Source of the DNA: Candidatus Poribacteria bacterium
Lineage (GTDB): Bacteria > Poribacteria > WGA-4E > WGA-3G
Reading direction: 5' to 3'
DNA length: 64,000 nucleotides
Assembly: GCA_965198235.1 (NCBI GenBank)
Contig: OZ240248.1
Coordinates: forward strand, 4,672,001 to 4,736,000
Below the pieces are notes generated by a model. It saw only the letters and a list, made by a program, of their open reading frames with translations. It had not been told where the DNA came from and made no database searches. This document shows positions 6,980 to 57,962 of this stretch, one piece after another. The translations under genes were made by a program, and so were the position numbers. Every line of letters begins with the position of its first letter. The stretch's first letter is position 1.

Positions 6980-7175
6980 CTCCACGCTAAAGCGTGGAGA
7001 TTGTAGAATATCCCGAGCCAACGGGGGACCCTGCAACGCGAGATGCTGAATACACGCACATATCGCGGACCTTGTGGTGGCACACAACAAGACGGTACTA
7101 GGTGCTCCCCAAGCCTGTATCCTCTCTGGTTCCGTGATGTGGATGGGGCAACATACAACCCGAAAGGGGATTTAC
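6972..7175 (+). ncRNA. omegaRNA scaffold (HEARO-like) of the IsrB element
   Basis: Starts TCAGTAAC-TCCACGC-TAAA-GCGTGGAG-ATTG, the typical IscB/IsrB 5' hairpin; contains GGTGCTCCCCAAGCC...CTCT...GATGGGG; directly upstream of isrB. Confidence 0.8.
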
Positions 7176-7180
7176 TAACT

Positions 7181-41433: not shown

Positions 41434-42567
41434 ATGAAGTTTTTTAAGATACTTTTTCTCGCAGCACTCAGTGCGATAATACTTACTGGATGCGAGAGGC
41501 AGCTTATATCACCGGTAGATCCTACTGGTCCCTCGCCAACCACTGCACAATTTGCGCAAAAGGCACTGTCGGACCTTGATGACACTGCAACTAAACACGG
41601 ACTCGTAGGTCTCGCAAACGCAGCAAGCGGAGTCGCAGAAATACTCGCAATTGAAGATGGTACTTCAGTGTACTCGACTTACTCAAGAATTGTTAGGCTT
41701 GCTCGGTCAGCAACTGTCTTGGCGCAAGAATTCGTTAAAGCAGGATGCGAAGTAGAATTGCAAGAATTTGCTGAAGCGTCCGTAAACGCAGTAAAAGCCT
41801 ATACAATAAGGGATGCAGATGACATGGAACAAGCATTGCAAAACCTTGCACAAGAGGCAGTAACAGCGAAAAAGCTATTGCAGCAGTTGCCAACTAATGA
41901 CACCTTCATTCCCTTCGCCTTCGGGTACGATTCTACCCCTTATGGAACCAACTTCCCCTATATCTCCAATGAAATATTGGTAGAGTATAACGATACAATT
42001 CGACCGGTGACCGAAACACGTACAGCTGTAATAGAGTTTCTGACCCTTAAAGGCTACATAGTGAAAGTAAGGACACACCTTAGGTTTGATCAGATATCTT
42101 TAGATGTGGGTGTCGATCCTCTTTTTCTTGGAGAAGGATTGATCAAAAAAATTCCCGGCGTTGGGTTTGTGCAGCCCAATTATCTTTACGAAACAACTGA
42201 GGTTAGACCCCGGCCTCCTAACGTTGTAATAACAAGTCGAATAATACATCAGGTGAGGACCAGATACAATAAAGCTTGGTGTCAGGGCAACTTTGACGTT
42301 ATAGACAGTATTTTAATTGAAGAAAGTGAGTTGGATTTCTTTGATTATTCTTTCGTTCGTAACCTTGCAGACATCTATGCAGAAGAAATTCCCGAAGCTG
42401 CTGAACGTATTCAAACAAATAGATTCTCCCCCCGTCTAATCGCAATAAAATTCTTAGAGATCTACTTCCGAGATTCGGAGAAAACTCTCGACGAAATTAT
42501 TGAACGCTTCCGGCAATCTGTCAGGATCGGAGGGGTGTGGGTATCGGATGTGTTATCGTACTTATGA
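41434..42567 (+). CDS. Hypothetical lipoprotein
   Basis: Lipobox LTGC; 377 aa; central segment resembles a subtilase pro-domain. Confidence 0.65.
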   Translation: MKFFKILFLAALSAIILTGCERQLISPVDPTGPSPTTAQFAQKALSDLDDTATKHGLVGLANAASGVAEILAIEDGTSVYSTYSRIVRLARSATVLAQEFVKAGCEVELQEFAEASVNAVKAYTIRDADDMEQALQNLAQEAVTAKKLLQQLPTNDTFIPFAFGYDSTPYGTNFPYISNEILVEYNDTIRPVTETRTAVIEFLTLKGYIVKVRTHLRFDQISLDVGVDPLFLGEGLIKKIPGVGFVQPNYLYETTEVRPRPPNVVITSRIIHQVRTRYNKAWCQGNFDVIDSILIEESELDFFDYSFVRNLADIYAEEIPEAAERIQTNRFSPRLIAIKFLEIYFRDSEKTLDEIIERFRQSVRIGGVWVSDVLSYL

Positions 42568-42628
42568 CGTTTTACCCCAATTACCGTATCACTGATTATT
42601 GGGATTAAAAAATTATGGAGGCTTCATA

Positions 42629-44266
42629 ATGCAATCTCCACACGGTATTACTGCTTCAGCGTTTCGTCCCTCTGTGATGGGAAGAAACGGCATGGTTACA
42701 TCTGGACAGGTCCTTGCCTCGCAAGCAGGCATTCAGACAATGATGGCGGGAGGCAATGCTGTTGATGCGGCTGTTGCAACTGCTGCCGCACTCGGTATGG
42801 TTGAACCTGCTGGCTCTGGGGTCGGTGGCGACGGCTTTATTCTCATCTATTGGGCGGAAACCGGGAAGGTCGAGGCGGTGAATGGAACTGGACCCGCACC
42901 GCGTGCCGCAACCCGGGAAACTTACATTAAAGACGGTGGAATCCCAATGAAAGGGATGCGAAGTGTTTCGGTGCCAGGGATCGTTGACGCATGGCTCCTC
43001 GCACACGAACGCTACGGGGCACTCAAATTAGAGGATGTTTTCTCACCAGCAATTTCGCTCTGCGAGGAAGGGTTTCCGGTGAGTCATAGACTTGCGGGTG
43101 GGCTTAAAGGCGAGAACGCTCGCTTTGCCGCCGAACCAGATTCGCGCGCTGTCTTTACAAACAATGGGGAACCGATCGCCGCAGGTCAATTCCTTGCGAA
43201 TCCCAATCTCAGCACCACACTCCGAAAGATCGCAAAACACGGCAGAGACGCGTTATATAAAGGCGAGATCGCTAAAACCATCGGTGAATTCAGCCGCGCA
43301 TACGATGGACTCTTAACAGCCGAGGATCTCGCGAACTATCACGCACACTGGGCTGAGCCGATACACGTCAACTACCGTGGGTACGAGGTTTATGAGATGC
43401 CTCCCAACTCAAGCGGGCATATCTTACTTCAAGAATTAAACATGGTTGAGTTATTTGATTTGCAAACCTTAGGGTGTAATACCGCCGAAAGTGTGCATCT
43501 GATGGTTGAGGCGAAAAAACTCGCCTTCGCTGATCGGGAAAAGTATATGGCGGATCCAGAGTGGGTGGATGTTCCTATGGAAGGAATGTTATCTAAATCC
43601 TATGCCGCTGAACAAGCAGAACGTATCGACTTAGATAAGGCGGCTTTTGATGTTCCAGCAGGCGGTCCAGAGGCACACGAAGATACAACCTGTTTCTGCA
43701 CCGCGGACCGGGCAGGAAATCTCGTTTGTATCCTGCAGAGTATCCAGTCAGGGTTCGGCTCCAGCCTCATTGCGGGTGACACAGGTATCCTCTTGAACAA
43801 TCGCATGACTTATTGGCATTTGGAAGAGGGACATCCGAACTGTTTGATGCCGGGTAAACGCGTTCGCCACACCATGAACCCCGTCATTGCTACAAAGGAT
43901 GGTCGACCGTTCTTAGCGTGTGGCACTCCTGGAGCAGATACACAGGTCCAAACGAATCTACAGCTTGTTACCCATATGCTTGATTTCGGAATGACACCGC
44001 AGGAAGCGGTCTCTGCTCCGCGCTGGCGGAGTTTACAGAACCCGATGGAATCCACTATCCCACACACTTGCTCCAATGATCTCCAGTTAGAAACCCGATT
44101 CCCTTCAGATACCAAGGAGGGTTTGGAGAAGAGAGGACATGAACTTCAAATCGTCGGAGATTGGGGTGGTCCGGGGAGTGCTCAGGCTATCATGGTTCAT
44201 CCGGAATCTGGAGCACTCATCGGGGGTTCTGATCCGAGAACAGATGGGTATGCCGTCACTTTTTAG
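42629..44266 (+). CDS. ggt: Gamma-glutamyltransferase family protein
   Basis: GGNAVDAA, SGVGGDGF, DTT nucleophile, LNNRM and GGSDPRTDG. Confidence 0.95.
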   Translation: MQSPHGITASAFRPSVMGRNGMVTSGQVLASQAGIQTMMAGGNAVDAAVATAAALGMVEPAGSGVGGDGFILIYWAETGKVEAVNGTGPAPRAATRETYIKDGGIPMKGMRSVSVPGIVDAWLLAHERYGALKLEDVFSPAISLCEEGFPVSHRLAGGLKGENARFAAEPDSRAVFTNNGEPIAAGQFLANPNLSTTLRKIAKHGRDALYKGEIAKTIGEFSRAYDGLLTAEDLANYHAHWAEPIHVNYRGYEVYEMPPNSSGHILLQELNMVELFDLQTLGCNTAESVHLMVEAKKLAFADREKYMADPEWVDVPMEGMLSKSYAAEQAERIDLDKAAFDVPAGGPEAHEDTTCFCTADRAGNLVCILQSIQSGFGSSLIAGDTGILLNNRMTYWHLEEGHPNCLMPGKRVRHTMNPVIATKDGRPFLACGTPGADTQVQTNLQLVTHMLDFGMTPQEAVSAPRWRSLQNPMESTIPHTCSNDLQLETRFPSDTKEGLEKRGHELQIVGDWGGPGSAQAIMVHPESGALIGGSDPRTDGYAVTF

Positions 44267-44307
44267 CCTATCTTTGGAGAGTTCATAGCGAGGACACAAT
44301 TAAAAAA

Positions 44308-45360
44308 ATGAAAATATTAGTTACAGGCGGTACGGGCCGCATCGGATCCAATCTCGTCAACAAATTATTGGAAAAGGGACACGATATCCGCAGTTTTGTC
44401 TATCCGGGGGATGTCAATCGTGTCGGACGATGGGATGGCACTGAACGCGTAGAGACCGTCCTTGGTGACTTGCGGGAATACGAGGATGTCAAAAAAGCCG
44501 TTGAGGGGGTAGATGCCATCTATCACATCGCTGCAGCATTCGGCGGTCCGTTTGATAATCGTCAGTACTTGGCAATCAACGGCATGGGGACGCTTAATAT
44601 ATTGGAGTGCATCCGCGAATTCAATCCGAACATTCATCGCCTTGTTTATGCCTGTACCGAAGCGATTTATTGGGAACTCACTGAAAAAGGTAGATTTTTC
44701 AATGAACTGATTACCGAGGACATGGTTGCCAAATACCATCACATGCCCTATTTCCTTACCAAATGGATTGGCGAGGAGCTGTGCATGAGCTATCATCACC
44801 AATATGGTGTGCCTTCAACAGTTTTTCGTTTCACAACGGTTATTGAACCGAGTGAATATCTCAACGAAGATGGCTTACCGAAGCAATTCGTCTTTAGTAA
44901 TATCTATAATCGATACAAGAATTATACCGGCGATGATCCTGCTGAGTTAGAGGCGGCAAATGCCGTTAAACGTCTCTGGGATGGGCAGGAGAAATTCATA
45001 CTCAAACGCAATCCTGACGGACGCCCCTACAAGGAGCATTTCACTGATGTCCGGGATATTGTACAAGGGTTGGTTTTAGGGATCGAAAAGGATGCTGCTG
45101 TTGGTGAAGAATTCACACTCGGCGGAAATGGTATCTTCAAGCATGAAGAAGTTATCCCATACCTATGTGAACGTTACCAGATGGACTTTGTTGATGTGAA
45201 ACTCCCACAATCCCTCTATTTTGAATTTGATTTAAGCAAAATCAAAACGCTGTTAGACTTTGAACCACAACACAATTTAGCGAGTATCCTTGATGCTGCT
45301 GAAGCGATGCACCGTGGTGAAGATGCAGGCATCATTCCGACAGGCGTTCGGTGGACTTAA
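44308..45360 (+). CDS. NAD-dependent epimerase/dehydratase
   Basis: VTGGTGRIG; YFLTK (YxxxK). Confidence 0.9.
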   Translation: MKILVTGGTGRIGSNLVNKLLEKGHDIRSFVYPGDVNRVGRWDGTERVETVLGDLREYEDVKKAVEGVDAIYHIAAAFGGPFDNRQYLAINGMGTLNILECIREFNPNIHRLVYACTEAIYWELTEKGRFFNELITEDMVAKYHHMPYFLTKWIGEELCMSYHHQYGVPSTVFRFTTVIEPSEYLNEDGLPKQFVFSNIYNRYKNYTGDDPAELEAANAVKRLWDGQEKFILKRNPDGRPYKEHFTDVRDIVQGLVLGIEKDAAVGEEFTLGGNGIFKHEEVIPYLCERYQMDFVDVKLPQSLYFEFDLSKIKTLLDFEPQHNLASILDAAEAMHRGEDAGIIPTGVRWT

Positions 45361-45559
45361 TATCTGCTTTTCAGCAATTCTTGTATAGGAACAATCTCCG
45401 AATCACTGTTTCATGGCTCTGCAGATTTCCTTGATGTCTTGTAAATAATGGGTTAAACTTAAATTGCTTAGAAGTTAGGCGCATTAATTTCCGGTAGATG
45501 TGCTTTGTAAGTCTGACGGTTGAACCTAATCAAACCTGAGGTTCGGAGATTTATTTATC

Positions 45560-47203
45560 GTGAAAACCTCTCTTGGCATATCCTTACTTTTCTTATTCGC
45601 TTTTGCCTGCTTGATGCTCAGTTGCACGAAGACTACGGTCGCGCCGACACGGCAGGTTTCATCAAGCACGAAACACCTTGATCGGTATATTAACGCCGTG
45701 CTTAAGAGGAAAGGTATTCAATCCTCAAAGATGTCAGAAGATACAGAGTTTTTGCGCCGGGTCCATCTTGATCTGACCGGTAAAATTCCAACTCCTGAAG
45801 AGGTCTCGGATTTTCTCAAAGACGGTTCTTCAAGCAAACGCCAGAAGAAGATTAATCAGTTGCTGGCGAGTGACACCTACTTGAACTATTGGACTGGGTT
45901 ATGGGTGAACTGGTTAATCGGTAGACGTGAAGATGGTGATGATCGACGCATCGGATTAACGTTTTGGGTGCGGGATGCCTTGATGAAAAATATGCCGTAC
46001 AATCAGTTCGTTCAGGAACTCATCGCGGCTGATGGCGAATTACGGGACAACGGCGCAGGAAACTATATCATGCGTTACGAACGTTCGCCGGTCTTTCTAA
46101 CTTCACATACCTCGCGTCTTTTCTTGGGACTCTCTATGCAGTGTGCGGAATGCCACGATCATAAAACAGAGGTGTGGAGCCAAGAGGATTTCTACGGTAT
46201 TGCTGCCTTTTTTGCTGGTATTGATAGTCAGCGGAAGGGAGACATCCAGACAATGGATATAGTAGGTAATGAGAGAAGGATGGATAATTTTCTCATTACT
46301 AACAAACCGGAAAGTTCGATTTGGGTGAAAAGGCTTGAAAAACAGGTCTGGCCTCACTTCTTAGATGGGACGGAATACAAAGGTCCGCTCCTCAAAAAGC
46401 GAGAGGCACTCGCGCAGTGGATGACTGATAAATCAAACTCCTATTTTAGTCAAGCAATCGTAAATCGCATCTGGAAACGCTTTATGGGACGTGCTTTTGT
46501 CGAACCGGTTGATGGATTCGGAGAAGAAAACCAGCCTACGAATCCTGAACTCTTGAAATGGCTCGCAAATGATTTCGTCATTCACGGCTACGATTTACAA
46601 CATTTGATGCGGACAATCCTGAACTCAGAGACATATCAACGCACATCACAGACGAATGAAAGCAACAAAGATGATCAACTCTATTATTCGCACGCGTATG
46701 TGAAACCCTTAAGTGCTGAGCAGTTCTTTTATTCCCTGCTGCAAGCCACTGGTTTTGAGAGACTTCAACAGGTCAGAATGAAAGGTATCAAGAAGCGGGG
46801 CGGCGAAGACAGGAAGGGTATGCTGCGTCAACTTGAGCGGATGAAACGTGAGCATCTCAAAAAGTTCCTCTTTCTCCTCGATAATGGCGAGATGGAAGAA
46901 ATTGAGGCGTTTAATGGAACAATCCCGCAAGCACTCATGATGATTAATGGGGATATGGTAAACGATAGCGCGAGTCATGAAGAACGCGGGAGTTTTGTAA
47001 ATTACGTATTAGGAAAATGGCGCGAGCCTATTGAACGGATGGAGCATATCTATCTCAATGTGCTATCTCGGTTGCCAACAGCTAAAGAAAAAACCTACTT
47101 TAGACGCTATTTAGAGCGTAGTCTTTATCGAAACAAGGACTTGGCTTACGAAGACCTCTATTGGGTCTTATTGAATTCAGCCGAGTTCTCACTCAACCAT
47201 TAA
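45560..47203 (+). CDS. DUF1549/DUF1553 planctomycete-type cytochrome c-like lipoprotein
   Basis: FLRRVHLDLTG, CAECH heme motif, VNRIW and LLNSAEF. Confidence 0.9.
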   Translation: MKTSLGISLLFLFAFACLMLSCTKTTVAPTRQVSSSTKHLDRYINAVLKRKGIQSSKMSEDTEFLRRVHLDLTGKIPTPEEVSDFLKDGSSSKRQKKINQLLASDTYLNYWTGLWVNWLIGRREDGDDRRIGLTFWVRDALMKNMPYNQFVQELIAADGELRDNGAGNYIMRYERSPVFLTSHTSRLFLGLSMQCAECHDHKTEVWSQEDFYGIAAFFAGIDSQRKGDIQTMDIVGNERRMDNFLITNKPESSIWVKRLEKQVWPHFLDGTEYKGPLLKKREALAQWMTDKSNSYFSQAIVNRIWKRFMGRAFVEPVDGFGEENQPTNPELLKWLANDFVIHGYDLQHLMRTILNSETYQRTSQTNESNKDDQLYYSHAYVKPLSAEQFFYSLLQATGFERLQQVRMKGIKKRGGEDRKGMLRQLERMKREHLKKFLFLLDNGEMEEIEAFNGTIPQALMMINGDMVNDSASHEERGSFVNYVLGKWREPIERMEHIYLNVLSRLPTAKEKTYFRRYLERSLYRNKDLAYEDLYWVLLNSAEFSLNH

Positions 47204-47267
47204 CTCGTTAACTGTGTACTTCGAGGCTACGTCCCAAGCAGGTACACACTAAAAGGAGAATTTTATT

Positions 47268-47990
47268 ATGAACAGCCGTAACCTGTTCATTGCTATTTGT
47301 ATAATTACGTTTGGCATCGCTGCGCTTGCGATGTCGCAAACCTATTTTGAGGATAATTTCGATGATCCGAAAGAATCTGAAAAAAAATGGGTCGCCCTCT
47401 TCGGGGAATGGGAGCTCAAGGACGATGAATACCACCAGCTCCAAAATACCCCTAACTGCATGAGTGTCGTCGCTGATGAATTCTGGGAGGACGACTGGAG
47501 CGATTACACCTTTGAGGTCCGAGGGAGCAAAGTCAGTGGTGCCGAGGGGTTCCTGATTATGTTTCGGTGCCAAGGATTGATGCAAGCCCGCGGGCAAGCT
47601 CTTGAAGACCCTCCGCCACGTATGGAGAAACTCAAACCTTCATTGGAGTACTGGTGGAACCTTGGCGGCTGGGGAAACTCACGCTCACAGGTTGAATCGT
47701 GGGGTGGCAAAGCCGGTGCGAATAGTGCTCACACCATTGATGAGAAGGATTGGTATAACATCAAGATTGTCAATACGCCCGATAGTTACACAGTCATTCT
47801 CAACGATGAAGAAGTCGCAGAGGTGGACGATGATACCGAGGGCGGTGTCGGGCGAATTGGCTTGGCAACCTGGAGGACGGTTGCGAAGTATGACGATGTT
47901 GTTGTTTACGGACCTGATGGTCCCTCGCTACCAGTTGATGCGAAGAGCAAACTCGCGACGACTTGGGGACATCTTAAATCCGTAAAGTAG
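47268..47990 (+). CDS. Secreted lectin-like (DUF1080/LamG-like) protein with KLATTW C-terminal tail
   Basis: Signal peptide; DWSDYTFE, WYNIKI, GRIGL; ends PVDAKSKLATTWGHLK. Confidence 0.7.
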   Translation: MNSRNLFIAICIITFGIAALAMSQTYFEDNFDDPKESEKKWVALFGEWELKDDEYHQLQNTPNCMSVVADEFWEDDWSDYTFEVRGSKVSGAEGFLIMFRCQGLMQARGQALEDPPPRMEKLKPSLEYWWNLGGWGNSRSQVESWGGKAGANSAHTIDEKDWYNIKIVNTPDSYTVILNDEEVAEVDDDTEGGVGRIGLATWRTVAKYDDVVVYGPDGPSLPVDAKSKLATTWGHLKSVK

Positions 47991-48013
47991 TTTTTGAACA
48001 CTGTTATGAATTA

Positions 48014-48046
48014 GAGCGCGGGGTTTTGCTGCCTCGCGTTCCTTTT
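48014..48046 (+). terminator. Putative terminator hairpin
   Basis: GAGCGCGGGG/CCTCGCGTTC stem followed by TTTT. Confidence 0.45.
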
Positions 48047-48108
48047 ATTGGGATAGTTGTAAATCTTTTATAGGGGATTTTGAAAACCTGAAGGTTACGC
48101 TGAAAAGT

Positions 48109-50052
48109 ATGCCAAGGCACTCCCAGACCGAACTCTCCATACCCACCTACCATACTGTCGTCTCAACCCCTCATGGACGGATAGGTGAACTCAGGCTGAG
48201 TACCAACAATAGAAAGCTTGAAACGCCAGTGCTATATCCTGTCATTAACTTTCTGACGGGGACGAGTACGCGTGGGGGGGGTGTTTGGAAATATATTCTA
48301 AAGATTCTGATGCAGCGCCAGACACCTATGCTGTCTCAGATCTTACATTTTCTCGATTTCCCACTCACTGGACGCTATCTTGAAAATTGGCGTGGAAAGT
48401 CGATGCGCGAGCATTATCGTGAACAGAATGGTGTGTATGAAGGTACTCTCTTCTTAGATTCCGGTGGCTTCAAACTCCTCTACAACACCGGTATGGATCT
48501 GCAAGAATTTGGAATTCACAAGGAAACAGAGGCAGAGGACATTCTCAATCTCCAATTAGGCTTTGAAGGCGATATAGTCGCCTCTTTGGACTACCCGCTC
48601 CCACCCAACTTGGCGCGTCCTGAAGCTGAAGCACGGATGAAACAGAGTCGCGCAAACGCGGTCCGGGTGGCAGAACGCTTGGCAACAAACACGAGCGAGA
48701 TGCGGACGGTGCCTTATCTTTACACCTGCTGTCACGGGCAATCTGGAGAGGACATCTCGGATTATGTGAGGCAACTCTTTGCCCAAATAGATGGCACATT
48801 ACCCTCATTCGGGTTGGCCGTCGGATCACTTGTGCCTTTACGTGGTAAAGACGATTCGGAAGTGATGGAACTGGTTAACGGTGTCGTCCAAGCAATCCCA
48901 GACGATCAGCGGGATACGACCCCTATTCACGCATTCGGTGTTTCAGGTGTTCTCACGCCACTCCTCGCTTATATCGGTGTTGACACGTTTGACAGTTCCG
49001 GCTACATACATACGTCTCGGAGTCTCACATATTCACAACCGCACACCCAGAAGAAACTCAGAATTATGGAGATGGATGAGACAGACTGCAACTGTTACAT
49101 CTGCGAAGCATACCCACTTCAGGAAATTCAGCAGGCGTTTATGGATAAACAGAGTTATAGAGCCACCTCAACAGGTAAGTTTAAGAGCGAGTACTATGCC
49201 GCTATTGGGCTTCATAACTTCCAGACAGAAGCCGATATTCTCGATGAGATGCGCACCGCAATTGCAGCAGACGATGCGCTTGAAGGTTTAGTCCGACACC
49301 TTGCTAAATACCAGAACTTCCGCGGTTTACGGCGGGCAACAGCATGGCTTTCCGAAAACGACAGGACGCTTGCAGCCCGATTGGCTCGAACGTTAACTCA
49401 GATGCCCACACCTATGAAAGCGAAGCACACGCGGCAGAACCTGAATCAGTTAGAACTCTTTCCATCTGATTACGGAAGAAAACCTGAGAACAAGATCCAA
49501 ACTGTCCAAGGAGATAGAGAGCCTCAAACGATCTCACTGGCATATACTCCTGATGATTTTCGAGTCCCTTGTGATTATAAACCGCCAGATGGAAAAGAAA
49601 TTCTCCTTGTGATTCCGTGTGCTGGAAAGAAACCTTACTCACTGTCTCGTACACACACGATGATCGCAAACAGACTTCAAACTGCTTTTGGGGAAAGACA
49701 GGAGCGTATTCACACAATAACGCTCTCTGGACTTTACGGTCCCGTTCCTGAAGAATTTGAGACAGAGGACGCTGTCACCCGCTACGATTTTCAGCTCTCT
49801 CATAAGAACACCGCCCAAATTGAACAGTGTGCAACGCGTCTGGTCGACTACCTACAGAAATATAGCGATAGTTATACGCTTAAAATAGGATACGCGACAA
49901 GTAGGGCGTACAGGAAGGTCTTTGGACTCGCAGAGGAGCGTTTTCCGACATTCATATTGTTGCCGAAAGAACTTAGACAGAAACGCTTAGCCGAATTCTT
50001 CAGACATACGAACTTAGATGCTTTGGTTGAGGTAATACGAGACAAATTATAG
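48109..50052 (+). CDS. tRNA-guanine transglycosylase-like domain fused to ArcS/DUF5591 domain
   Basis: LDSGGF, LDYP, HG, HAFG, DTFDSS, CNCYIC...HN; C-terminal PCAGKKPYSLSRTH and GPVPEE. Confidence 0.8.
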   Translation: MPRHSQTELSIPTYHTVVSTPHGRIGELRLSTNNRKLETPVLYPVINFLTGTSTRGGGVWKYILKILMQRQTPMLSQILHFLDFPLTGRYLENWRGKSMREHYREQNGVYEGTLFLDSGGFKLLYNTGMDLQEFGIHKETEAEDILNLQLGFEGDIVASLDYPLPPNLARPEAEARMKQSRANAVRVAERLATNTSEMRTVPYLYTCCHGQSGEDISDYVRQLFAQIDGTLPSFGLAVGSLVPLRGKDDSEVMELVNGVVQAIPDDQRDTTPIHAFGVSGVLTPLLAYIGVDTFDSSGYIHTSRSLTYSQPHTQKKLRIMEMDETDCNCYICEAYPLQEIQQAFMDKQSYRATSTGKFKSEYYAAIGLHNFQTEADILDEMRTAIAADDALEGLVRHLAKYQNFRGLRRATAWLSENDRTLAARLARTLTQMPTPMKAKHTRQNLNQLELFPSDYGRKPENKIQTVQGDREPQTISLAYTPDDFRVPCDYKPPDGKEILLVIPCAGKKPYSLSRTHTMIANRLQTAFGERQERIHTITLSGLYGPVPEEFETEDAVTRYDFQLSHKNTAQIEQCATRLVDYLQKYSDSYTLKIGYATSRAYRKVFGLAEERFPTFILLPKELRQKRLAEFFRHTNLDALVEVIRDKL

Positions 50053-50065
50053 GAACTGACAACAG

Positions 50066-51265
50066 ATGTTAAACTATTTTTTACCCCCACAAATTGAATT
50101 TGGCGACGGTGCAATCCAAAACTTAGGCGAACATGTCAAGGCATTTGATGGCAAAAAACCGTTCTTAGTGAGCGATGCCGGTGTCATCAATGCGGGTATC
50201 CTCGCGAAAGCGGCAGATGCCTTGGAGGCAAGCGGGTTATCGTCCGCTACGTATTCGGATATCGAACCGAATCCCACGGACATCAGTGTTACACACGGTA
50301 TAGAAGTTTACAAAGCTGAGGCGTGTGATGTCGTCATCGCTGTCGGGGGCGGAAGTGTGATGGATGCCGCCAAAGCCATCCGTCTCTTGACGACCCATGA
50401 ACCACCCGCTGGCGAGGGAACACCCAAGCAAAAACACCTCGCTCCATATTACGCTGATGTTGGTGGAGTCGAGCGAATCCGAGGCGATATGCCACCGCTA
50501 ATATGTGTACCAACGACTGCCGGCACGGGCAGTGAGGTGTCACAAGGCTCAATCATTACGGATACATCCCTACAGACAACCGATCGATGGCGGAAGCGTG
50601 CAATCGTTACGCCCTTCAACATGGCGAACATAGCACTCCTTGATCCGGGAATAACCCTCGGCATGCCACCTGCCCTTACTGCCGCGACCGGTATGGATGC
50701 GATTACACACGGTATCGAGGCGTATGCGGCGACGAAGTACCACCCTATTGCCGAGGGGGTTGCATTGCAGGCACTCAGAATGTTGAGTGCGAATATCCAA
50801 CAGGTTTATCACAATGGGGAAGATGTAACTGCACGAGGGGAAATGCTTCTCGGATCATGCATGGCGGCATTTTCGTTCCAGAAGGGGCTCGGTGCGGTCC
50901 ATTCGCTGGCGCACCAACTCTCTACAGATGCCCCCATTCCGCATGGTGTAGCGAACGCTATTCTCCTCCCTCCTGTCATGGAATTCAACTTTTCTCATGC
51001 GAGCGAGAAATACGCGGAAATCGCGCGTGCCTTAGGCATAGATACCAGTAACATGGATATCGACGAGGCAGGGCATGCTGCTATTGATAAAATCAGGGCG
51101 TACAACACGGAGTTGAATATGCCCGCGGGTCTCGGAGATGCTGGTTTAGACCGGGGAAAGATTCCAAAACTCGGAGCGGATGCCATGCTCGATCATTGTC
51201 ACAAATTCAATCCGAGGGTGTGTACAGAAGAGGATATGGTGACTTTATTTGAGGCGGCGTTCTAA
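50066..51265 (+). CDS. Iron-containing alcohol dehydrogenase
   Basis: GGGSVMD, PTTAGTGSE, DAITHGIE, HSLAH and HGVANA. Confidence 0.95.
   Translation: MLNYFLPPQIEFGDGAIQNLGEHVKAFDGKKPFLVSDAGVINAGILAKAADALEASGLSSATYSDIEPNPTDISVTHGIEVYKAEACDVVIAVGGGSVMDAAKAIRLLTTHEPPAGEGTPKQKHLAPYYADVGGVERIRGDMPPLICVPTTAGTGSEVSQGSIITDTSLQTTDRWRKRAIVTPFNMANIALLDPGITLGMPPALTAATGMDAITHGIEAYAATKYHPIAEGVALQALRMLSANIQQVYHNGEDVTARGEMLLGSCMAAFSFQKGLGAVHSLAHQLSTDAPIPHGVANAILLPPVMEFNFSHASEKYAEIARALGIDTSNMDIDEAGHAAIDKIRAYNTELNMPAGLGDAGLDRGKIPKLGADAMLDHCHKFNPRVCTEEDMVTLFEAAF
50408..50443 (+). repeat. REP-like element inside the ADH reading frame
   Basis: GCTGGCGAG-GGAACACCCAAGCAAAAAC-ACCTCGCT matches intergenic copies at 11665 and 54860. 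Confidence 0.7.
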
Positions 51266-53541
51266 GGAATATCAATAGGCACAATCCAACCTTTCGTTAA
51301 CGCCGGTTTATAAGCATTATCGCGCAAATAATCCGAGGTCTGCCACAGGCAGAGATGCTTACCGTCTGGCATCCAGACGACCGATGTCAGCTTCATCGGA
51401 ATGCGAGCAATAGGAAATTTCTTACCGCTCTCAAGGTCATAAACCCAGACCTTCCAGCGGATGCCCGCACAGTCTTCACGTTCCATATATGCTAACTGTT
51501 TACCTGTTGGCGACCATGCGGGTGAGGTGTGTTTCAAAATCTGACTCTGCGTCAAAGTGGACACCGTCTCTGATACGTGCAGCTGCTTATCGAGCAGCTG
51601 CCCCGGACGGTTACTGCCGGACAAGACATAAGCCAGCTGGGTTCCATCTGCCGACCAGTTCACTTGATGAACCTGTTGATGCTGCGTCAGGATCCCTTTT
51701 ATGTGCTGCCCTTCTATGTCTTGGATGCGGATGCCAACATATTTTGAATTGTTTACACCGAAAGCAACACGGGTGCCATCAGGTGCCCAAGATGGTGCAG
51801 ACAGATAGGTATAGGTACGCTGCCGGCGTTCAATTGGTACACGGGCAATAGCACCTAAACCGCTACCATCACTATTGATTCGGTAGACGATGTCCAGTCT
51901 CCCAGTTTGAGAAAAGGCGCGTCTTCTGAACACCAAACGGTTCGATGTCGGTGAAAAGGCAGGTCCATCTCCACGAACTAACTGTTTGATCCGTCCGAAT
52001 TTCCAATCGACTGTGTAAATAAAGCGTTCACCCTTTTCGTCAACTTCAAAAGCAACAAGCCTACTGTCAAGCGACCAAGAGACATGCGGATTGTAAAAGT
52101 CTCCGGTGTAGAACTTTCGTGCCCGTTCCCCCTTCCGATCCATAATCCACAGTTCATTTGCACGCCAATATCTGCCACCCAAATCTTCTCTCTTTAAAAA
52201 TGCGATGAGCTCCCCGTCCGGACTCCAGCGCGGAAACTCAGCACCTTCAATTAATTGCACCCTATACGGATCCGTAATCGAGTGATCTTCCTTACGACAG
52301 AAAGCCGTATTGAACATGATACCGTCTATCTCTTTGAACTCACCGAAGGCGAACTTGTTCATCCACCCTTGTACACCGTTGGGGAGTTCAACTTCATACC
52401 ATCCGTCCGAAACTCGTACAATCGGCAAATGCACTCCATCGTTGAGTTGTAACAACACGGATGTCCCTTCGCTGATGGCGGTTGTACCCCCGTCCTTTCT
52501 TGTATAAACCGGTGCCGCGTCATGTGCCACAGTCCCTTGTCGTCGAGTCTCCGTCGCGCGATTCCTGCTGGCGAGGTTTGCAACCTCGCTTGCGTTTGTA
52601 AAGGCGTAGACGTTGCCATCACCAGATGCAGCATAGAGAACGCCATCGGAGATTGCAGGGGCAGCGTCCACAAAACCACCGAGTTGATATGTCCAAGTTT
52701 CAGTCTTGGATGCTACATCAAACGCGTGGAGTTGTCCATCACGGGCACCGATATAGACGATGCCATTCGCCGTCACAGGATAACTCTCGCTTCCACCTGT
52801 GTAACCTCGCCACAAGTCGGCGTTGTGTTCTGGAAAGATAGGACGGAACACCCCATTAGCACATCCATATTCAATACCGTGGATGCGAATTTTCCGCTCA
52901 CGCATTGCTTCAAGAGTGCCTGTCCGCGCATTCAGCAGATAGATTTTTGAAGGAAACGCACCGATGTAAACCCTATTGTCCAAAACAATCGGCGGCGCGT
53001 CCATCCAACTTTTCGATTTGAACTCCCACAGTTTTTCACCTGTTTTTGCATCTAACGCGTAAACTTTGTTGTTCCTCGCGCTAAAGTAGACGCTATCTGC
53101 CAGGACCGTCGCAGAGTAACGGATAGCGTCCCCGGCATCAAAAACCCACCTGATACCCCACTGCTTCGCATCCAGTGCATACAACTTGCCATCGGTCGAT
53201 CCGATATACAAAATCCCATTCGCAATCACTGGTGAAGCATGGAGCGGTCCACCGGTTTTGAATTTCCACAGCAGTTCCAACGGTGGTGTAACGCTTTTGT
53301 CAGGACTCACCCCAGAAAAGCCAAGATTGTGCATGAACATGTGCCAATCTTCAGCACGAGGAGGCGGGACAGGTTCTGTTGCTTCAGGGGCTGCTGGCTG
53401 CTGTGCTGTCGGTTGCTGCGTCTGCTTTTTCTGTTGTGAATCGCATCCCCACACAAGGAGGAGTACAAGTAGGACTAAGAACTTTTTGGCACAGTTCGCA
53501 AGCGAAAATTTATTATAGAAAAGTCTATTCCAGAGATACAC
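51262..53541 (-). CDS. Lipoprotein: PQQ/BamB-like propeller + SH3-like + TolB/PD40 propeller
   Basis: Lipobox VWGC; repeats LYIGSTDGKLYALD; DGWYEVELPNGVQGW; WSPDG/WAPDG repeats. Confidence 0.85.
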   Translation of the reverse strand: MYLWNRLFYNKFSLANCAKKFLVLLVLLLVWGCDSQQKKQTQQPTAQQPAAPEATEPVPPPRAEDWHMFMHNLGFSGVSPDKSVTPPLELLWKFKTGGPLHASPVIANGILYIGSTDGKLYALDAKQWGIRWVFDAGDAIRYSATVLADSVYFSARNNKVYALDAKTGEKLWEFKSKSWMDAPPIVLDNRVYIGAFPSKIYLLNARTGTLEAMRERKIRIHGIEYGCANGVFRPIFPEHNADLWRGYTGGSESYPVTANGIVYIGARDGQLHAFDVASKTETWTYQLGGFVDAAPAISDGVLYAASGDGNVYAFTNASEVANLASRNRATETRRQGTVAHDAAPVYTRKDGGTTAISEGTSVLLQLNDGVHLPIVRVSDGWYEVELPNGVQGWMNKFAFGEFKEIDGIMFNTAFCRKEDHSITDPYRVQLIEGAEFPRWSPDGELIAFLKREDLGGRYWRANELWIMDRKGERARKFYTGDFYNPHVSWSLDSRLVAFEVDEKGERFIYTVDWKFGRIKQLVRGDGPAFSPTSNRLVFRRRAFSQTGRLDIVYRINSDGSGLGAIARVPIERRQRTYTYLSAPSWAPDGTRVAFGVNNSKYVGIRIQDIEGQHIKGILTQHQQVHQVNWSADGTQLAYVLSGSNRPGQLLDKQLHVSETVSTLTQSQILKHTSPAWSPTGKQLAYMEREDCAGIRWKVWVYDLESGKKFPIARIPMKLTSVVWMPDGKHLCLWQTSDYLRDNAYKPALTKGWIVPIDIP
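52567..52590 (+). repeat. REP-like palindrome inside the PQQ/TolB gene linker
   Basis: GCTG-GCGAGGTT-TGC-AACCTCGC, the same arms as the intergenic copy at 12595. Confidence 0.65.
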
Positions 53542-53606
53542 ATCGACCCTTTCGTTAAGACCTTAGATTAGGGATTGAGGCTATGGGAAAACCATTGAGA
53601 CATTTC

Positions 53607-53635
53607 ATTATCTATTAAGTTAGCATATTAGTCAA
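53607..53635 (-). promoter_or_regulatory. Hybrid promoter formed at the IS right end
   Basis: Minus strand TTGACT (TTGAC from element end)-17 nt-GATAAT, upstream of the PQQ/TolB gene. Confidence 0.55.
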
Positions 53636-53645
53636 CTACCCAAGC

Positions 53646-54500
53646 CTAAAGACTTGGGAAACCTGCGATAGCACTAAACAGTGTTAGCTGTGTTGCTTTC
53701 TGCAAGTCCAAGTTTTCTGCTTCGTTCTTGTTTCTCGTTTCACAGAGGGTGGCAACCCACCGCTCTCCACGAAGGGCCGTAGCAGCCCTAATAAGTATAT
53801 TTAGCGCAGCGTTCTGATCCCGGTCAAGAGAGAATCCACAATAACCGCAGTTAAAGGTCCGTATCGCCAGCGAAAGTTTCTTTGGCGACTTTAAACCACA
53901 ACAGGAACAGGTTTGCGAGGTATCTTTGGGATTCACTTGATGGAAGTGCAAACCGTCTCTTTCGGCTATGTCTGCACACCACTTAAAGAATTTGCCCCAA
54001 GACGCATCGCTGATGCTCTTGCTGAGGTGTGTGTTCTGAACCATATTGGATATGCCCAAATCTTCAGCGACAAGGACATTGTTTTTCAGGTGATGATAGA
54101 GTTTGTAAACGAGTTTGCCGATAAAGTCTTTGCGTTTGTGGGTTGTCCGTTCCTGGTGTAGTGCCGTTGCATGCACGGCTTTCTGCCAGCGATGACTCCC
54201 TTTTTTCGCGTCTCCGTTCTTACATCGTCTACGGAAGTTACCAAATGCTTTATCCACGCGGGCTAAAATATGATTCTGAAAGTCTTGGGGCACTTCGCGA
54301 TAGTCGGCATATTTACGACGCGCTTGGGTCAACAACTTCTGCTGCTCCTTGCGAGAGACAAAGACACCTTCTTCTTCGTAAGCACGGACACGGTTGAAAC
54401 GTGCTGAATTCTGAAGATCGCAAAGATGGTCAAACCACATCAAAAAAGTTTGTGCTTCTGCTTGCGTCGGAGATAACCGATATTTATATGTGAGATTCAT
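53646..54500 (-). pseudogene. tnpB: TnpB with in-frame internal deletion (lacks RuvC-I)
   Basis: TYKYRLSP HTH, AEDL, TSQTCSCC...CGYC, DRDQNAALNI; no GIDxG; GDAKKG joined directly to SHRWQK. Confidence 0.85.
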
Positions 54501-54596
54501 GGTATATCAGGTATCAGGTGTTTATCCCCTAATGAGTGGGAGGCAAGCACGCCACCAAGGGGTAACGCTCATTATGCTTGCCAACCTGATACTTTA

Positions 54597-54625
54597 ATTA
54601 TACGACAATTTCAGACAAAAATCAA
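54597..54625 (-). promoter_or_regulatory. sigma70 promoter of tnpB
   Basis: Minus strand TTGATT-17 nt-TATAAT. Confidence 0.7.
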
Positions 54626-54859
54626 GTTCATTTTTCAAATAACGCTTTGGCAAAACATACAAGAGCGGTTTTTCCTCCCAAACCTAAAGGATTGGGATTC
54701 CAAAACCGACTATACCCTTGAAGCGTGTGCAACTGAAATACGGTCTGCCTGATAGCCCTTCTGCGGTTTGAAGAAGACAGAATGCTGAAAACTATAGAAT
54801 TATCAAAGTATGTAGACGGGTGGAAGGGCATCTGTTGTAGGTGTCCATAAACGCCCATT

Positions 54860-54902
54860 GCTGGTGAGGTCTCCTCGGGAAACACTTAAGCAAAACACCT
54901 CG
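54860..54902 (+). repeat. REP-like element with GGGAAACAC..AAGCAAAA insert
   Basis: GCTGGTGAGGTCTCCTC-GGGAAACACTTAAGCAAAAC-ACCTCG. Confidence 0.6.
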
Positions 54903-55244
54903 TCCTCCGCTTCGTATAGATAATTGTAGGTTTTACCATAAATAACTTTACCGAATTTTTATAACCTTCGTATTTCCTGAAGAAAATCGAATCGGTTTGC
55001 AACAAAAAATAAAAAGATGAAGCGTACATCTCCCAACTTTTATATCTTTTCGTGAAACTTTTCGTGAAACGAAATTACATCAGGTTCTAATGAAAAGCGG
55101 ATGCTTGAAGACTACAAAGAATCAGTTTTTCTCAAACGCTACGAAAGTTAGAAAAATTTGAATTTGCGGTAAAACTGTGTTAAAATTATACTTCTACAGT
55201 ACAACACCATTTTATTTTATTTATATTGTAAGCGGTGAAGGAAA

Positions 55245-56531
55245 ATGAACACGTCAAAGTCTCGCAATCCGAGAATTGCTTTCAAGTTAGGTGAAGTCGA
55301 CCCACAGATTGTTGAAATCACCGCCAAAGACCTGAAACGTCAGCAAGATTCTCTCATGCTGATCCCATCCGAGAACTACGCCAGTCGTGCCGTTATGGAA
55401 ATCCAGAGCAGCATTCTCGCCAATAAATACGCCGAGGGCTATCCGGGTGAGCGTTACTATAACGGATGCCAGTTTATGGACGCTGTTGAATCGCTCGCGA
55501 TTGAACGCGCGAAAGCACTCTTCGGCGTTGAACATGTCAACGTCCAACCTCACGCTGGCAGCCAAGCCAATATGGCAGTTTACCATGCGTTGCTTGAGCC
55601 TGGGGACACTATTTTATCCATGTCTCTCAGCCACGGTGGGCATCTCAGCCACGGCGATGCTGTCAACTTTTCTGGACGTTATTATAATATCGTTACATAC
55701 GGGGTGAATGCCGAAACTGAGCGAATCGACATGGAAGGGATCGCACGCCTCGCCGCGGAGCATCGTCCGAGACTCATCGTTGTCGGCGCGACAGCCTATC
55801 CTCGGCACTTCGACTTTGCCGCATGGCGACAGGTTGCTGATTCCGTAGGTGCCTATCTGCTCGCAGATATAGCCCATATTGCCGGGCTTATCGCCGGTGG
55901 TGCACACCCGGATCCTGTTCCGTACAGTGATGTGATAACGACGACAACACACAAGACCTTACGGGGTCCCCGCGGTGCGATGATTATGTGTAGAGCCGAA
56001 TATGCAGACAAGATTGACCGCGCCGTGTTTCCGGGCTTACAAGGTGGTCCCTTCCTTCATACAATCGCTGCCAGAGCTGTTGCGTTCAAGGAGGCAAGTG
56101 AACCCGCTTTTAAGACATATCAGGCACAGATTGTTAAAAATGCTAAGGCACTCGCTGCACGATTAATTGAAAACGGTTTCCGATTGGTGAGCGGTGGCAC
56201 CGACAATCATCTGATGCTGATAGATATCACCTCCAAATATGAGAAACTTAGTGGACGACAAGCCGCCGATCATTTGGAAGATGCCGGAATTATTGTAAAT
56301 AAAAATACCATTCCTTTCGACAAGCGGAAACCGAGAACGACAAGTGGTCTACGCCTCGGGACACCGATGATTACGACGCGCGGGATGACAGAGGATGAGA
56401 TGGTCCTCGTCGCCGATTTCATCGCAGAAACGCTTGAAAATAGGCAGAAAGCCTCTATCAAACGGCAAATCCGAGGGAAAGTTAAGGAACTCTGTACGCA
56501 ATTCCCAATTTATGAATACCTAAATTCGTAA
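55245..56531 (+). CDS. glyA: Serine hydroxymethyltransferase
   Basis: [16 protein letters not shown] and [12 protein letters not shown]. Confidence 0.98.
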
Positions 56532-56540
56532 GCGGACATC

Positions 56541-57962
56541 GTGTGTCTGAACGGGAGCAGCAGCGAAAAATTGGATTACAAAGCGGCACTCGCCTATATT
56601 GAAGGGTTTATTGACTATGAAAGAAGTCCTGATTTTTCACGGCAGGCGCGGCTCTATAATTTGGACAGGATCTCCTTATTGCTGGAGCTGCTCGGTAATC
56701 CACACGATAGACTGCAGGTTGTCCATATCGCAGGGAGCAAAGGGAAAGGCTCCACTGCTGCCCTTATAGCATCGGTGCTTACGCATGCCGGCTATAAAAC
56801 CGGTTTGTTTACATCTCCGCATCTCATTACACCGCGAGAACGGTGTCGTATTGATGGAGATTTAATCTCAGAAGCAGATGTTGCTATTTATGTTGAGAAA
56901 CTCAAGCCGGCAATTGAGGCTGTTTCCGCTTCTGAGTTCGGACGTGTCTCATTTTTTGAAATATACACCGCGCTTGCTTTTTTCTATTTTGCCGACAACG
57001 GAACAGACTTTGCTGTTATCGAGGTCGGCTTGGGTGGTAGGCTCGATGCGACGAACGTTGTTACACCAGTCGTGACTGTTATTACACCGATCGGCTTAGA
57101 ACATACCGCGATATTGGGGGAAACATATACCGAAATAGCGGGCGAGAAAGCCGAAATCATTAAACAGGAATGTCCCGTGGCACTTGCACCACAGCACCCG
57201 GAAGCGCGAGCAGTGTTTGAGAAAGTGGCGAGCGAGCGCAAGGCACCGATTGTTGAACTCAAAGTCCTTGACGCAGCTTGCAAGCCAATCTCTCGAGGGG
57301 CAGGACAAGACTCGTGTGTATCAGACCCGCGTCTCATTCAAAATGTCGATGGTTTACCTATAGCACAGCGATTTGACGTGGAAACGGATTCGGAGAGTTA
57401 TCCGCAGCTCACTATGCCGCTCCTTGGACACCATCAGTTTATAAACGCGACAACTGCTGTTGCAGCGATTGAGTGCCTGAAACAAGAAGGATACATAGTT
57501 CCGAAAGTTAGTGTTTATGCCGGATTTAAGAACGTGCAGTGGCACGGTCGGATCCAACGAATTAGGTCCTCGCCAATCGTTGTCCTTGATGGCGCGCACT
57601 CCTCTGCCTCAATGGAGGTACTCTGCTGCACTCTCCGTCAGAGTTTTCGTTACAGTCGGGTGATTTTTATCGTTAGTTTAATGAAAGATAAGAATCTTAC
57701 AGCAATTGGCAATGTTATTTCACAAACAGCAGATTTCGTGATTGCTACACAAGTTCTTAACAATCCGCGTGTGATGCCCGCTGAGGAGTTACAAAGTGCT
57801 TGGGAGAAGATGTGTAGGAAAATTACCGCGTGTCCAACGCCGGAAGAAGCAATCACAAAGGCGTTATCCGACGCATCACCGACAGATTTAATCTGTGTTA
57901 CAGGTTCGCTCTATCTCGTCGGTCAGGCGTTGGAATGTTTTTCGGTTCTCGATAGCCAATAG
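56541..57962 (+). CDS. folC: Folylpolyglutamate synthase/dihydrofolate synthase
   Basis: HIAGSKGKGST, TSPHL, EVGLGGRLDATN, LDGAH and TGSLY. Confidence 0.95.
   Translation: MCLNGSSSEKLDYKAALAYIEGFIDYERSPDFSRQARLYNLDRISLLLELLGNPHDRLQVVHIAGSKGKGSTAALIASVLTHAGYKTGLFTSPHLITPRERCRIDGDLISEADVAIYVEKLKPAIEAVSASEFGRVSFFEIYTALAFFYFADNGTDFAVIEVGLGGRLDATNVVTPVVTVITPIGLEHTAILGETYTEIAGEKAEIIKQECPVALAPQHPEARAVFEKVASERKAPIVELKVLDAACKPISRGAGQDSCVSDPRLIQNVDGLPIAQRFDVETDSESYPQLTMPLLGHHQFINATTAVAAIECLKQEGYIVPKVSVYAGFKNVQWHGRIQRIRSSPIVVLDGAHSSASMEVLCCTLRQSFRYSRVIFIVSLMKDKNLTAIGNVISQTADFVIATQVLNNPRVMPAEELQSAWEKMCRKITACPTPEEAITKALSDASPTDLICVTGSLYLVGQALECFSVLDSQ

Follow-up and report, generated by a model that had tools for sequence, protein, structure and literature searches.

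What would a bacterium do with a single polypeptide that joins a guanine-exchanging transglycosylase (TGT) to the core of an archaeosine synthase (ArcS), and on which nucleic acid would such an enzyme act? The question is raised by a 647-residue open reading frame (ORF) of a Candidatus Poribacteria bacterium, located in a 64,000-nucleotide stretch of forward strand (positions 4,672,001 to 4,736,000 of contig OZ240248.1, assembly GCA_965198235.1; hereafter the window). The host is a sponge-symbiont bacterium with a genome of 5.17 Mb, and the nearest relatives are found in Poribacteria metagenome-assembled genomes. The answer developed below, to which we assign a probability of about 0.55, is that the fusion protein is a writer and tailor of 7-deazaguanine in DNA that is recruited by the sliding clamp and is kept in Poribacteria as a solitary accessory gene.

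The initial annotation had described the gene as a bacterial TGT-ArcS fusion, and translation together with Pfam bears out this architecture and every coordinate given for it (Table 1). The catalytic aspartate motifs, the zinc site and the exact ArcS motif (as defined in PMC10516641 and PMC5699537) are likewise present, as judged by translation, by alignment to the arcTGT structure 1iq8 and by conservation in the family. An AlphaFold2 model based on 33 diverse homologues comprises two folded domains and a linker, with a mean predicted local distance difference test score (pLDDT) of 89.1 and a predicted template modelling score of 0.89. The top solved structure found by Foldseek with this model is arcTGT 1iq8 (E 1.2e-19), followed by the bacterial TGTs. 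With a family profile, the match to 1iq8 reaches 1.5e-34, those to bacterial and eukaryotic TGTs lie at about 1e-11 to 1e-13, and that to the ArcS-core protein AF0587 (PDB 2q07) is 5.1e-13. Pfam gives no PUA match at E<=1 in the 647-residue fusion, as the initial annotation had held; beyond TGT and DUF5591, a weak PriA_C match alone was obtained.

Across 33 diverse full-length members of the family, eighteen residues (D117, S118, G120, D161, P163, H274, G277, D295, C329, C332, H369, N370, P509, Y510, G544, P547, R602 and P619) never vary, and C327, C504, K508 and S513 are at least 90% conserved. When 15 C-domains are aligned, the invariant positions comprise P34, C35, K39, P40, Y41 and S44, which correspond to P503, C504, K508, P509, Y510 and S513 of the fusion, and S71, G72, Y74, G75, P76, V77 and P78 of the GLYGPVP block. 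Because the catalytic residues are invariant or at least 90% conserved, both active sites are under selection across the family. In sequence, the fusion unites a TGT that has its full set of catalytic residues with an ArcS-type core that lacks PUA.

Table 1 Features of the fusion gene, with window positions.
Feature	Positions	Strand	Basis
Whole gene, TGT + DUF5591 fusion, 647 aa	48109..50052	+	ORF list and translation; stop codon counted in
TGT (guanine-exchange) barrel, residues 23-399	48175..49305	+	Pfam PF01702, E 1.4e-18
DSGG, residues 117-120	48457..48468	+	D117 = arcTGT Asp95 in phmmer alignment to 1iq8
LDYP, residues 160-163	48586..48597	+	D161 = base-recognition Asp position; opposite LDIP of 1iq8
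FDSS, residues 294-297	48988..48999	+	D295 = arcTGT Asp249, nucleophile position (1iq8 alignment)
Zinc site C327, C329, C332, H369	49087..49215	+	C-x-C-x-x-C over the 1iq8 zinc cysteines
Disordered interdomain linker, residues 438-469	49420..49515	+	Sole internal segment with pLDDT <50
QLELF, residues 447-451, candidate beta-clamp-binding motif	49447..49461	+	Translation; inside the disordered linker
ArcS-core (DUF5591) domain, residues 470-647	49516..50049	+	Pfam PF17884, E 8.9e-14, match at 485-587
PCAGKKPYSLSRTH, residues 503-516, ArcS signature PC-x3-KPY-x2-S-x2-H (exact)	49615..49656	+	Translation
GLYGPVP strand-loop, residues 541-547, second conserved C-domain block	49729..49749	+	Family alignments

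A word-indexed protein search returned 349 proteins, 120 of which were listed, each with an identity of 56% or more; among these listed matches, TGT and DUF5591 occur together in all except two short fragments. An exhaustive search of 50%-identity representatives gave 513 matches at E<=0.001 and 100 at E<=1e-30, the full-length family members reaching down to about 28-30% identity. Clusters that combine TGT with DUF5591 are found in both Bacteria and Archaea in the Atlas, where a cluster labelled 'DpdA' with TGT and DUF6884 is taken as a lead only. A phage origin was considered and rejected: the phage collection holds no family match, and the viral contigs hold one weak match confined to the TGT part.

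Is the substrate RNA? The protein is not the housekeeping Tgt, an identity that we rejected on its score of 31.3 bits against the 306.75-bit cut-off of the bacterial model TIGR00430, and on the presence of a canonical tgt elsewhere in the genome (C1:1330875-1331927, 533.3 bits). Along with this separate tgt, the genome contains queC (252 bits), queF (107 bits) and queD, the latter as tandem domains; a check for tgt, queC and queD had been proposed in the initial annotation. PreQ0 is therefore available in the cell. The two tandem PTPS/QueD domains share one 294-residue frame (C1:730842-732160, minus strand) that lies beside a weak QueF-like match.

The fusion could nevertheless be a bacterial enzyme of arcTGT/ArcS type that places preQ0 in tRNA or some other structured RNA and goes on to make an archaeosine-type base from it, the Dpd-like islands of its relatives (described below) being irrelevant to the Poribacteria clade. 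Its top curated models are those of arcTGT (TIGR00432, 78.4 bits) and ArcS (NCBIfam NF040592, 74.2 bits), its top solved-structure match is arcTGT, and the Poribacteria copies sit amid housekeeping-type genes. Moreover, ArcS is active even on the preQ0 nucleoside, which indicates a loose substrate range of the core domain (PMC11298593). However, every score is far under the family cut-off (350 bits for TIGR00432 and 440 bits for NF040592), and the fusion possesses neither PUA nor any other C-terminal RNA-binding domain of arcTGT or ArcS. The canonical tgt already serves tRNA, a gene with strong matches in about 12 of the 65 genomes of its genus is too patchy to suit a core tRNA function, and the conserved clamp-type peptide of the linker would have no role on RNA. 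We consider an RNA substrate unlikely.

The genomic surroundings of the family point to DNA. Loci were fetched from genomes (9) and metagenomes (80), and 68 of the 89 were analysed, the 21 dropped being mostly short contigs without room for neighbours, or a duplicate. Clustering of the flanking ORFs revealed three recurrent neighbours, present in 36, 35 and 33 loci and comprising, according to Pfam, a second TGT (~414 residues), a GHKL-type ATPase (~518 residues) and a ~155-residue DUF6884 protein. The latter matches DUF6884 at 7.9e-14, YaaA at 1.8e-7 and DUF5591 at 9.4e-6, DUF6884 being the Pfam family of DpdC (PMC12235509). The second TGT shares its catalytic and zinc residues with the fusion. 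Rarer neighbours (in 13, 10, 10, 9, 6 and 6 loci) are QueD, a DEAD helicase, QueC, a radical-SAM (queE-like) protein, an AAA/NACHT-like ATPase and a GIY-YIG nuclease. PADLOC models matched among the neighbours are DpdJ (4.9e-54), DpdH (7.7e-13), PDC-M57A (8.7e-11), DpdC (5.3e-7) and, weakly, DpdA (1.1e-5).

A quick maximum-likelihood tree of 64 rows assigns the module of second TGT, GHKL ATPase and DUF6884 protein to a clade of 37 rows, and places the Poribacteria sequences in a single clade of 9 rows without Dpd-like neighbours. In a tblastn search of plasmids, full-length homologues were found on Haladaptatus and Natrinema megaplasmids. The annotated Haladaptatus locus (L122) contains a DEAD helicase, a PLD-like protein, DUF6884, TGT, an ATP-binding protein, a large AAA protein and two fusion copies, and the Natrinema copy is surrounded by DEAD/DEAH helicases and ATPases. 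In other bacterial clades the neighbours are HerA-type ATPases or a PglZ-like phosphodiesterase protein. Closest to Poribacteria is a clade (L021/L024) situated amid an ABC transporter, a sigma-70 factor and Lon, and thus solitary as well. DNA is the more likely target because the distant relatives occupy Dpd-like defence islands, and the DNA target suggested by the initial annotation is favoured by these neighbourhoods.

The complete set of DUF6884 protein, second TGT, GHKL ATPase and fusion was observed as a four-gene module in L039, L041, L047, L054, L075, L079, L086 and ~30 other metagenome loci, and on the Haladaptatus plasmid (L122). This haloarchaeal-type module often adjoins queC, radical-SAM and queD genes, a GIY-YIG nuclease and DpdJ-like helicases. 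It has the look of a Dpd-like system not described so far, with the GHKL ATPase in the position of DpdB. A further bacterial clade has a conserved linker string of its own, L-P-x-G-P-I-D-L-x-x-Y-x-P-G-x-P-P-W (L036:10001-11926, L037:3527-5440, P0124, P0134), and its genes adjoin a 259-275-residue protein that matches no known family and a DpdH-like ATPase.

Defence islands could also house an enzyme working in the opposite direction, that is, a clamp-riding surveillance enzyme that removes or rewrites foreign 7-deazaguanine, for instance in the DNA of an invading phage. Exchange by TGT is reversible in principle, and arcTGT is able to exchange preQ0 (PMC11298593). However, genes associated with preQ0 synthesis (queC, the radical-SAM gene or queD) accompany the module in 9-13 of the 68 loci, which fits writing rather than erasing, and a C-domain that tailors nitriles has no obvious role in erasure. 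We regard this reverse action as highly improbable.

If DNA is the substrate, what would bring the enzyme to it? Among the matches listed (120 of 349), the pattern QL[^P]LF is found in the linker of 112 of the 118 full-length relatives that could be parsed. The middle residue is free (E in 93, D in 11, K in 4, T in 2, R in 1 and Q in 1), and the six exceptions comprise a deletion, a short-linker form and the near-misses QLQPF, QLDFF, QFELF and QRFLI. When 31 sequences de-replicated at 85% are compared, the motif columns are 0.84/0.81/0.61/0.81/0.77 identical as opposed to 0.36-0.39 for the flanking linker. QLELF as a single string is not above chance, its conservation being what stands far above the linker background. 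At the same position in the linker, more distant bacterial members carry QLALF, QLSLF, QLPLPL or QLTFL.

Members of the haloarchaeal-like clade have QAKLSEW, QTKLSSFY, QSKLSKF, QAKLTEF and similar strings at this position. The Q is invariant and the L at +3 at least 90% conserved in 20 sequences of the clade, and in 16-17 of 27 de-replicated sequences the aromatic is present too. In a model of one haloarchaeal-like protein (mean pLDDT 79.9), QAKLSEW falls within a disordered stretch (454-481) in which residues 460-464 form a short helical turn. The PCNA-interacting peptide (PIP) box is defined as QxxI/L/MxxFF/Y, and its second aromatic is relaxed in Haloferax PCNA partners (PMC2737543, PMC3504372). 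The archaeal strings match the PIP-box pattern in the form Q-x-x-L-x-x-[F/W], the second aromatic being relaxed. The clamp-binding role proposed in the initial annotation is strengthened by the conserved QLxLF and by this PIP-like string at the same place in archaeal relatives.

Shuffling was applied to 75 linkers de-replicated at 70%. The bacterial clamp-binding motif (CBM) pattern occurs in 10 of them, where 2000 shuffles gave 0.28 on average and never more than 4. The PIP pattern occurs in 14, where the shuffles averaged 1.6 and reached 6 at most. These figures overstate the case because related sequences are not independent. Two of these 10 and 14 hits fall on the same sequences and a few are doubtful. 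The CBM pattern is ~45-fold denser in linkers than in the folded domains. Clamp motifs in the C-terminal tail are present in 3 of 75 members, a number attained in 3 of 2000 shuffles, which averaged 0.30; they carry little weight, the pattern having been chosen post hoc. The clamp argument rests mainly on two clades from two domains of life, in each of which the motif type fits the clamp of the host.

The genome encodes two full-length DnaN clamps that are 74% identical (C1:2318788-2319885, minus strand, and C1:4351275-4352375, plus strand), and a dnaN fragment (C1:1738754-1739098, plus strand). A complex was modelled between fusion residues 425-480 and the DnaN encoded beside a 428-residue ORF, using an alignment of 15 Poribacteria DnaN sequences and a linker alignment of 23 clade members selected for the presence of the motif. 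The docking score was 0.67, compared with 0.00 for the best of three controls. This mark is reached by 58 of 80 solved complexes and by 2 of 110 mismatched pairs, counts that are only rough because custom alignments were used. At least 68% of contacts are shared between the docking runs, and the partner has a pLDDT of at least 45. Linker residues 444 and 446-451 contact DnaN residues 150-153, 171-176, 241-246, 319, 343-345 and 359-366, a region that we take, from the E. coli clamp, to be the canonical peptide cleft. The model thereby supports a predicted binding in which QLELF is placed in the DnaN cleft.

From these observations we infer the DNA substrate, the product and the clamp binding in the cell, and propose the following mechanism. 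The N-terminal TGT barrel would exchange guanine in DNA for preQ0 supplied by QueC, QueD and related enzymes of the cell. The C-terminal ArcS core would then attack the nitrile of the inserted base, probably via Cys504 and Lys508 by analogy to thioimide chemistry, to give an amidine-type (archaeosine-like) or related base. ArcS transfers lysine and requires RaSEA in Thermococcus (PMC11298593), and DpdA2 with phage ArcS2 yields dG+ in E. coli (PMC10516641). Through QLELF, the flexible linker would hold the enzyme on DnaN and thereby direct it to newly replicated DNA on which the clamp is loaded. The Poribacteria protein may serve as an orphan marking enzyme.

A wider version of the proposal is possible rather than probable. 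It holds that one-protein 7-deazaguanine DNA writers ride the clamp in Bacteria (QLxLF and DnaN) and in Archaea (a PIP-like string and PCNA) as maintenance modifiers of newly replicated DNA, working alongside the module of second TGT, GHKL ATPase and DpdC-like protein in haloarchaea, and leaving an orphan epigenetic or protective mark in Poribacteria.

Several observations weigh against the proposal of a clamp-recruited DNA writer. On the side of the substrate, the nearest curated models are those of tRNA enzymes, with the fusion far under their cut-offs, and the PADLOC models of DpdA and DpdC give no match to the fusion protein at E<=1. DpdA requires the DpdB ATPase on duplex DNA (PMC10164549), and no ATPase partner is found among the 10 ORFs that flank the Poribacteria fusion gene. 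No restriction partner was identified from scans of the genome with the DpdJ and DpdH models: the DpdJ model gives a generic helicase match of 45.8 bits and finds matches in 12 of 14 control genomes as well, and the DpdH model gives no match here but is silent in the control genomes too. Profile-profile comparison relates the C-domain only weakly to the DpdC-like neighbours (probability 25%, E 7.7e-4), the same alignment pairing LLiiPCS..KPY with LLvQSCSktK and LSGLYGPVP with LSAkhGli.

On the side of the clamp, the proteome (about 3,988 ORFs) contains 18 instances of QL[^P]LF, versus ~21 expected from composition. Most of the 75 de-replicated members have neither clamp-type motif, and one haloarchaeal subclade carries Q-x-R-L-D-V-D-I-P-V without the aromatic. 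The success of docking may be memory because clamp-peptide complexes are already solved, and the linker partner's own fold is uncertain in the model. Finally, a second Poribacteria paralog of about 615 residues that is 55% identical (L136:9032-10879, L137:9196-11043, L138:9690-11534) has a short linker that carries no clamp-type motif; both forms are present in some genomes and, judged by the pattern of split matches, some genomes of sister genera apparently carry the ~615-residue form only.

A protein that modifies DNA could use the QLxLF or PIP-like string as a docking site for some other partner, or as an intramolecular latch between its two domains. Such a role would agree with the absence of the string from many family members, with the different conserved string (PGPIDL..Y.PG.PPW) in the linker of another clade, and with the lack of QLxLF enrichment and the possible memory effect noted above. 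It would not explain why the motif type tracks the clamp of the host, QLxLF in bacteria and Q-x-x-L-x-x-[F/W] in the haloarchaeal-like clade, at the same linker position and in segments that are predicted to be disordered in both cases. Nor would it account for docking contacts that fall on the cleft and the C-terminal residues of the clamp, all three controls being at 0.00. Such a role in place of clamp tethering appears unlikely to us, and the clamp-recruited DNA writer remains the preferred reading.

In the window, the 10 flanking ORFs scanned (41434-57962) include no que or dpd gene, as the initial annotation had observed, and no radical-SAM gene; neither dpdB (a ParB-like ATPase) nor dpdC is adjacent. 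These ORFs encode a gamma-glutamyltranspeptidase, an epimerase, a PSCyt2/PSD1 protein, a 3-keto-disaccharide-hydrolase-like protein, an Fe-alcohol dehydrogenase, a PQQ/WD40 protein, a TnpB fragment, SHMT, a Mur ligase and one protein that matches no family. DUF5591 occurs once in the genome. A stand-alone DUF6884/YaaA-like (DpdC-family) protein of 234 residues is encoded between a sigma-54 activator and SecF (C1:968794-969498, minus strand; equivalent to L126:1273-1977), far from the fusion gene. Dpd-like neighbours are likewise absent around the ~615-residue paralog, as judged by BLAST to the labelled set only.

Across the phylum, some match is obtained in 68 of 176 genomes, many of these being weak matches to ordinary Tgt. 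Strong full-length matches are found, beyond those of the host's own genus, in the majority of genomes in some sister genera. Interrupted copies, with a TAG or TGA stop or split, were observed in relatives (G156:C1:3513587-3515511, G048:C1:1273197-1275072, G083:C4:13359-15246), as would fit a dispensable gene. The fusion gene is accessory, since it is patchy in the genus and a few copies are interrupted by stops. The Poribacteria copy is therefore a solitary, patchily distributed accessory gene.

Sponge metatranscriptome contigs that are nearly identical to the window cover positions 47250-48538 and 48725-51300; a 2,683-nucleotide contig has 4 differences in 2,576 aligned bases. This cover is a weak hint of transcription, as the sequences are all contigs and RNA libraries can hold DNA; stretches without cover (e.g. 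48570-48706 in X1) carry no information.

Some further observations concern the clamp and its possible clients in this lineage. Relatives in the genus have 2-6 dnaN matches, some within ~580-residue open frames, which suggests fused or extended clamp paralogs. A Y-family polymerase, a known clamp client, was not found in the genome with PF00817. Of the 18 QL[^P]LF carriers, 11 were identified, and most of these act on DNA. Among the 11 are an RRXRR protein whose last residues are QLTLF, two TnpB proteins that carry the motif in their C-terminal tail, a 267-residue N6/N4 DNA methylase with QLYLF 16 residues before its end, a 674-residue DNA methylase, two Type ISP restriction-modification enzymes, an AbiEii-type ATPase and an SNF2/PLD helicase. 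Carriers are located at window positions 7043-8245 (plus strand) and 53646-54500 (minus strand), and at C1:2490054-2490857, C1:1469412-1471436, C1:78210-79490 and C1:1321517-1322953. Mobile-element and DNA-modification proteins of the lineage may thus be clamp-tethered.

DNA marks of 7-deazaguanine have been described in phages and in the bacterial Dpd system, in which insertion into duplex DNA requires a separate ATPase (PMC10164549). If the proposal is true, a fused writer and tailor brought by the clamp would be a different solution, one in which base exchange and replication are coupled. Archaeosine-type DNA chemistry would then reach the cellular genomes of Bacteria and Archaea, and there would be a new class of clamp client as well as a prokaryotic counterpart of the clamp-tethered maintenance methyltransferase. 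Poribacteria genomes with and without the gene offer a natural comparison for locating modified sites.

The closest functional precedent is the DpdA2 and ArcS2 pair of Vibrio phage nt-1, which converts G in DNA to dPreQ0 and then to dG+ (PMC10516641). Like the fusion, the pair combines a DNA transglycosylase of the TGT family with a DUF5591 ArcS core that has no PUA. It differs in consisting of two separate phage proteins rather than one polypeptide encoded on a cellular chromosome, and no clamp motif is described for it. In genomic terms the Dpd system is closest. Its DpdA and DpdB insert preQ0, DpdC makes dADG, and DpdD-K restrict (PMC10164549, PMC12235509); the relatives of the fusion adjoin DpdC-like (DUF6884), DpdA-like, DpdJ-like, DpdH-like and queC/D/E-type genes. 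In contrast, the family profile, which matches arcTGT at 1.5e-34, reaches the DpdA structure 7ui4 only at E 0.0019, the tailoring domain of the fusion is of ArcS rather than DpdC type, and the archaeal module has a GHKL ATPase instead of the ParB-like DpdB.

ArcS itself consists of a TGT-like N-terminal domain (Nt), C1, C2 and PUA (PMC10516641, PMC5699537). The statement in the initial annotation that archaea use separate arcTGT and ArcS proteins is correct, but the implied novelty of joining the two activities does not stand: as ArcS already has a TGT-like N-domain, the fusion is best called an ArcS-like architecture minus PUA, and not the first such join. It shares with ArcS and arcTGT (1iq8, 2q07) the TGT-like N-domain, the Rossmann-like core and the exact PC-x3-KPY-x2-S-x2-H motif (PMC11298593, PMC5699537). 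It differs from ArcS in the absence of PUA and in a score of 74 bits against the 440-bit cut-off, and from ArcS and arcTGT in that it is found in bacteria and, within defence contexts, on archaeal plasmids. Both the transglycosylase residues and the zinc site are fully intact in the fusion. Bacterial TGT-DUF5591 proteins may already be listed in the supplements of PMC10516641 (ArcS alignments, Data S1) and PMC12235509 (island tables).

As regards clamp clients, the bacterial QL[S/D]LF motif and the archaeal and eukaryotic PIP box are established (PMC3504372, PMC2737543). The fusion resembles such clients in having a short linear motif in a disordered segment, of a type that matches the host clamp and is predicted to dock in its cleft. 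It differs in that the motif is internal, between two catalytic domains, and not terminal, and in that the binding is predicted by a model. No deazaguanine enzyme is reported as a sliding-clamp client in the literature searched, and no report found there brings transglycosylase, DpdA and PCNA together. A functional analogy for a clamp-tethered DNA modifier is provided by DNMT1 and its association with PCNA.

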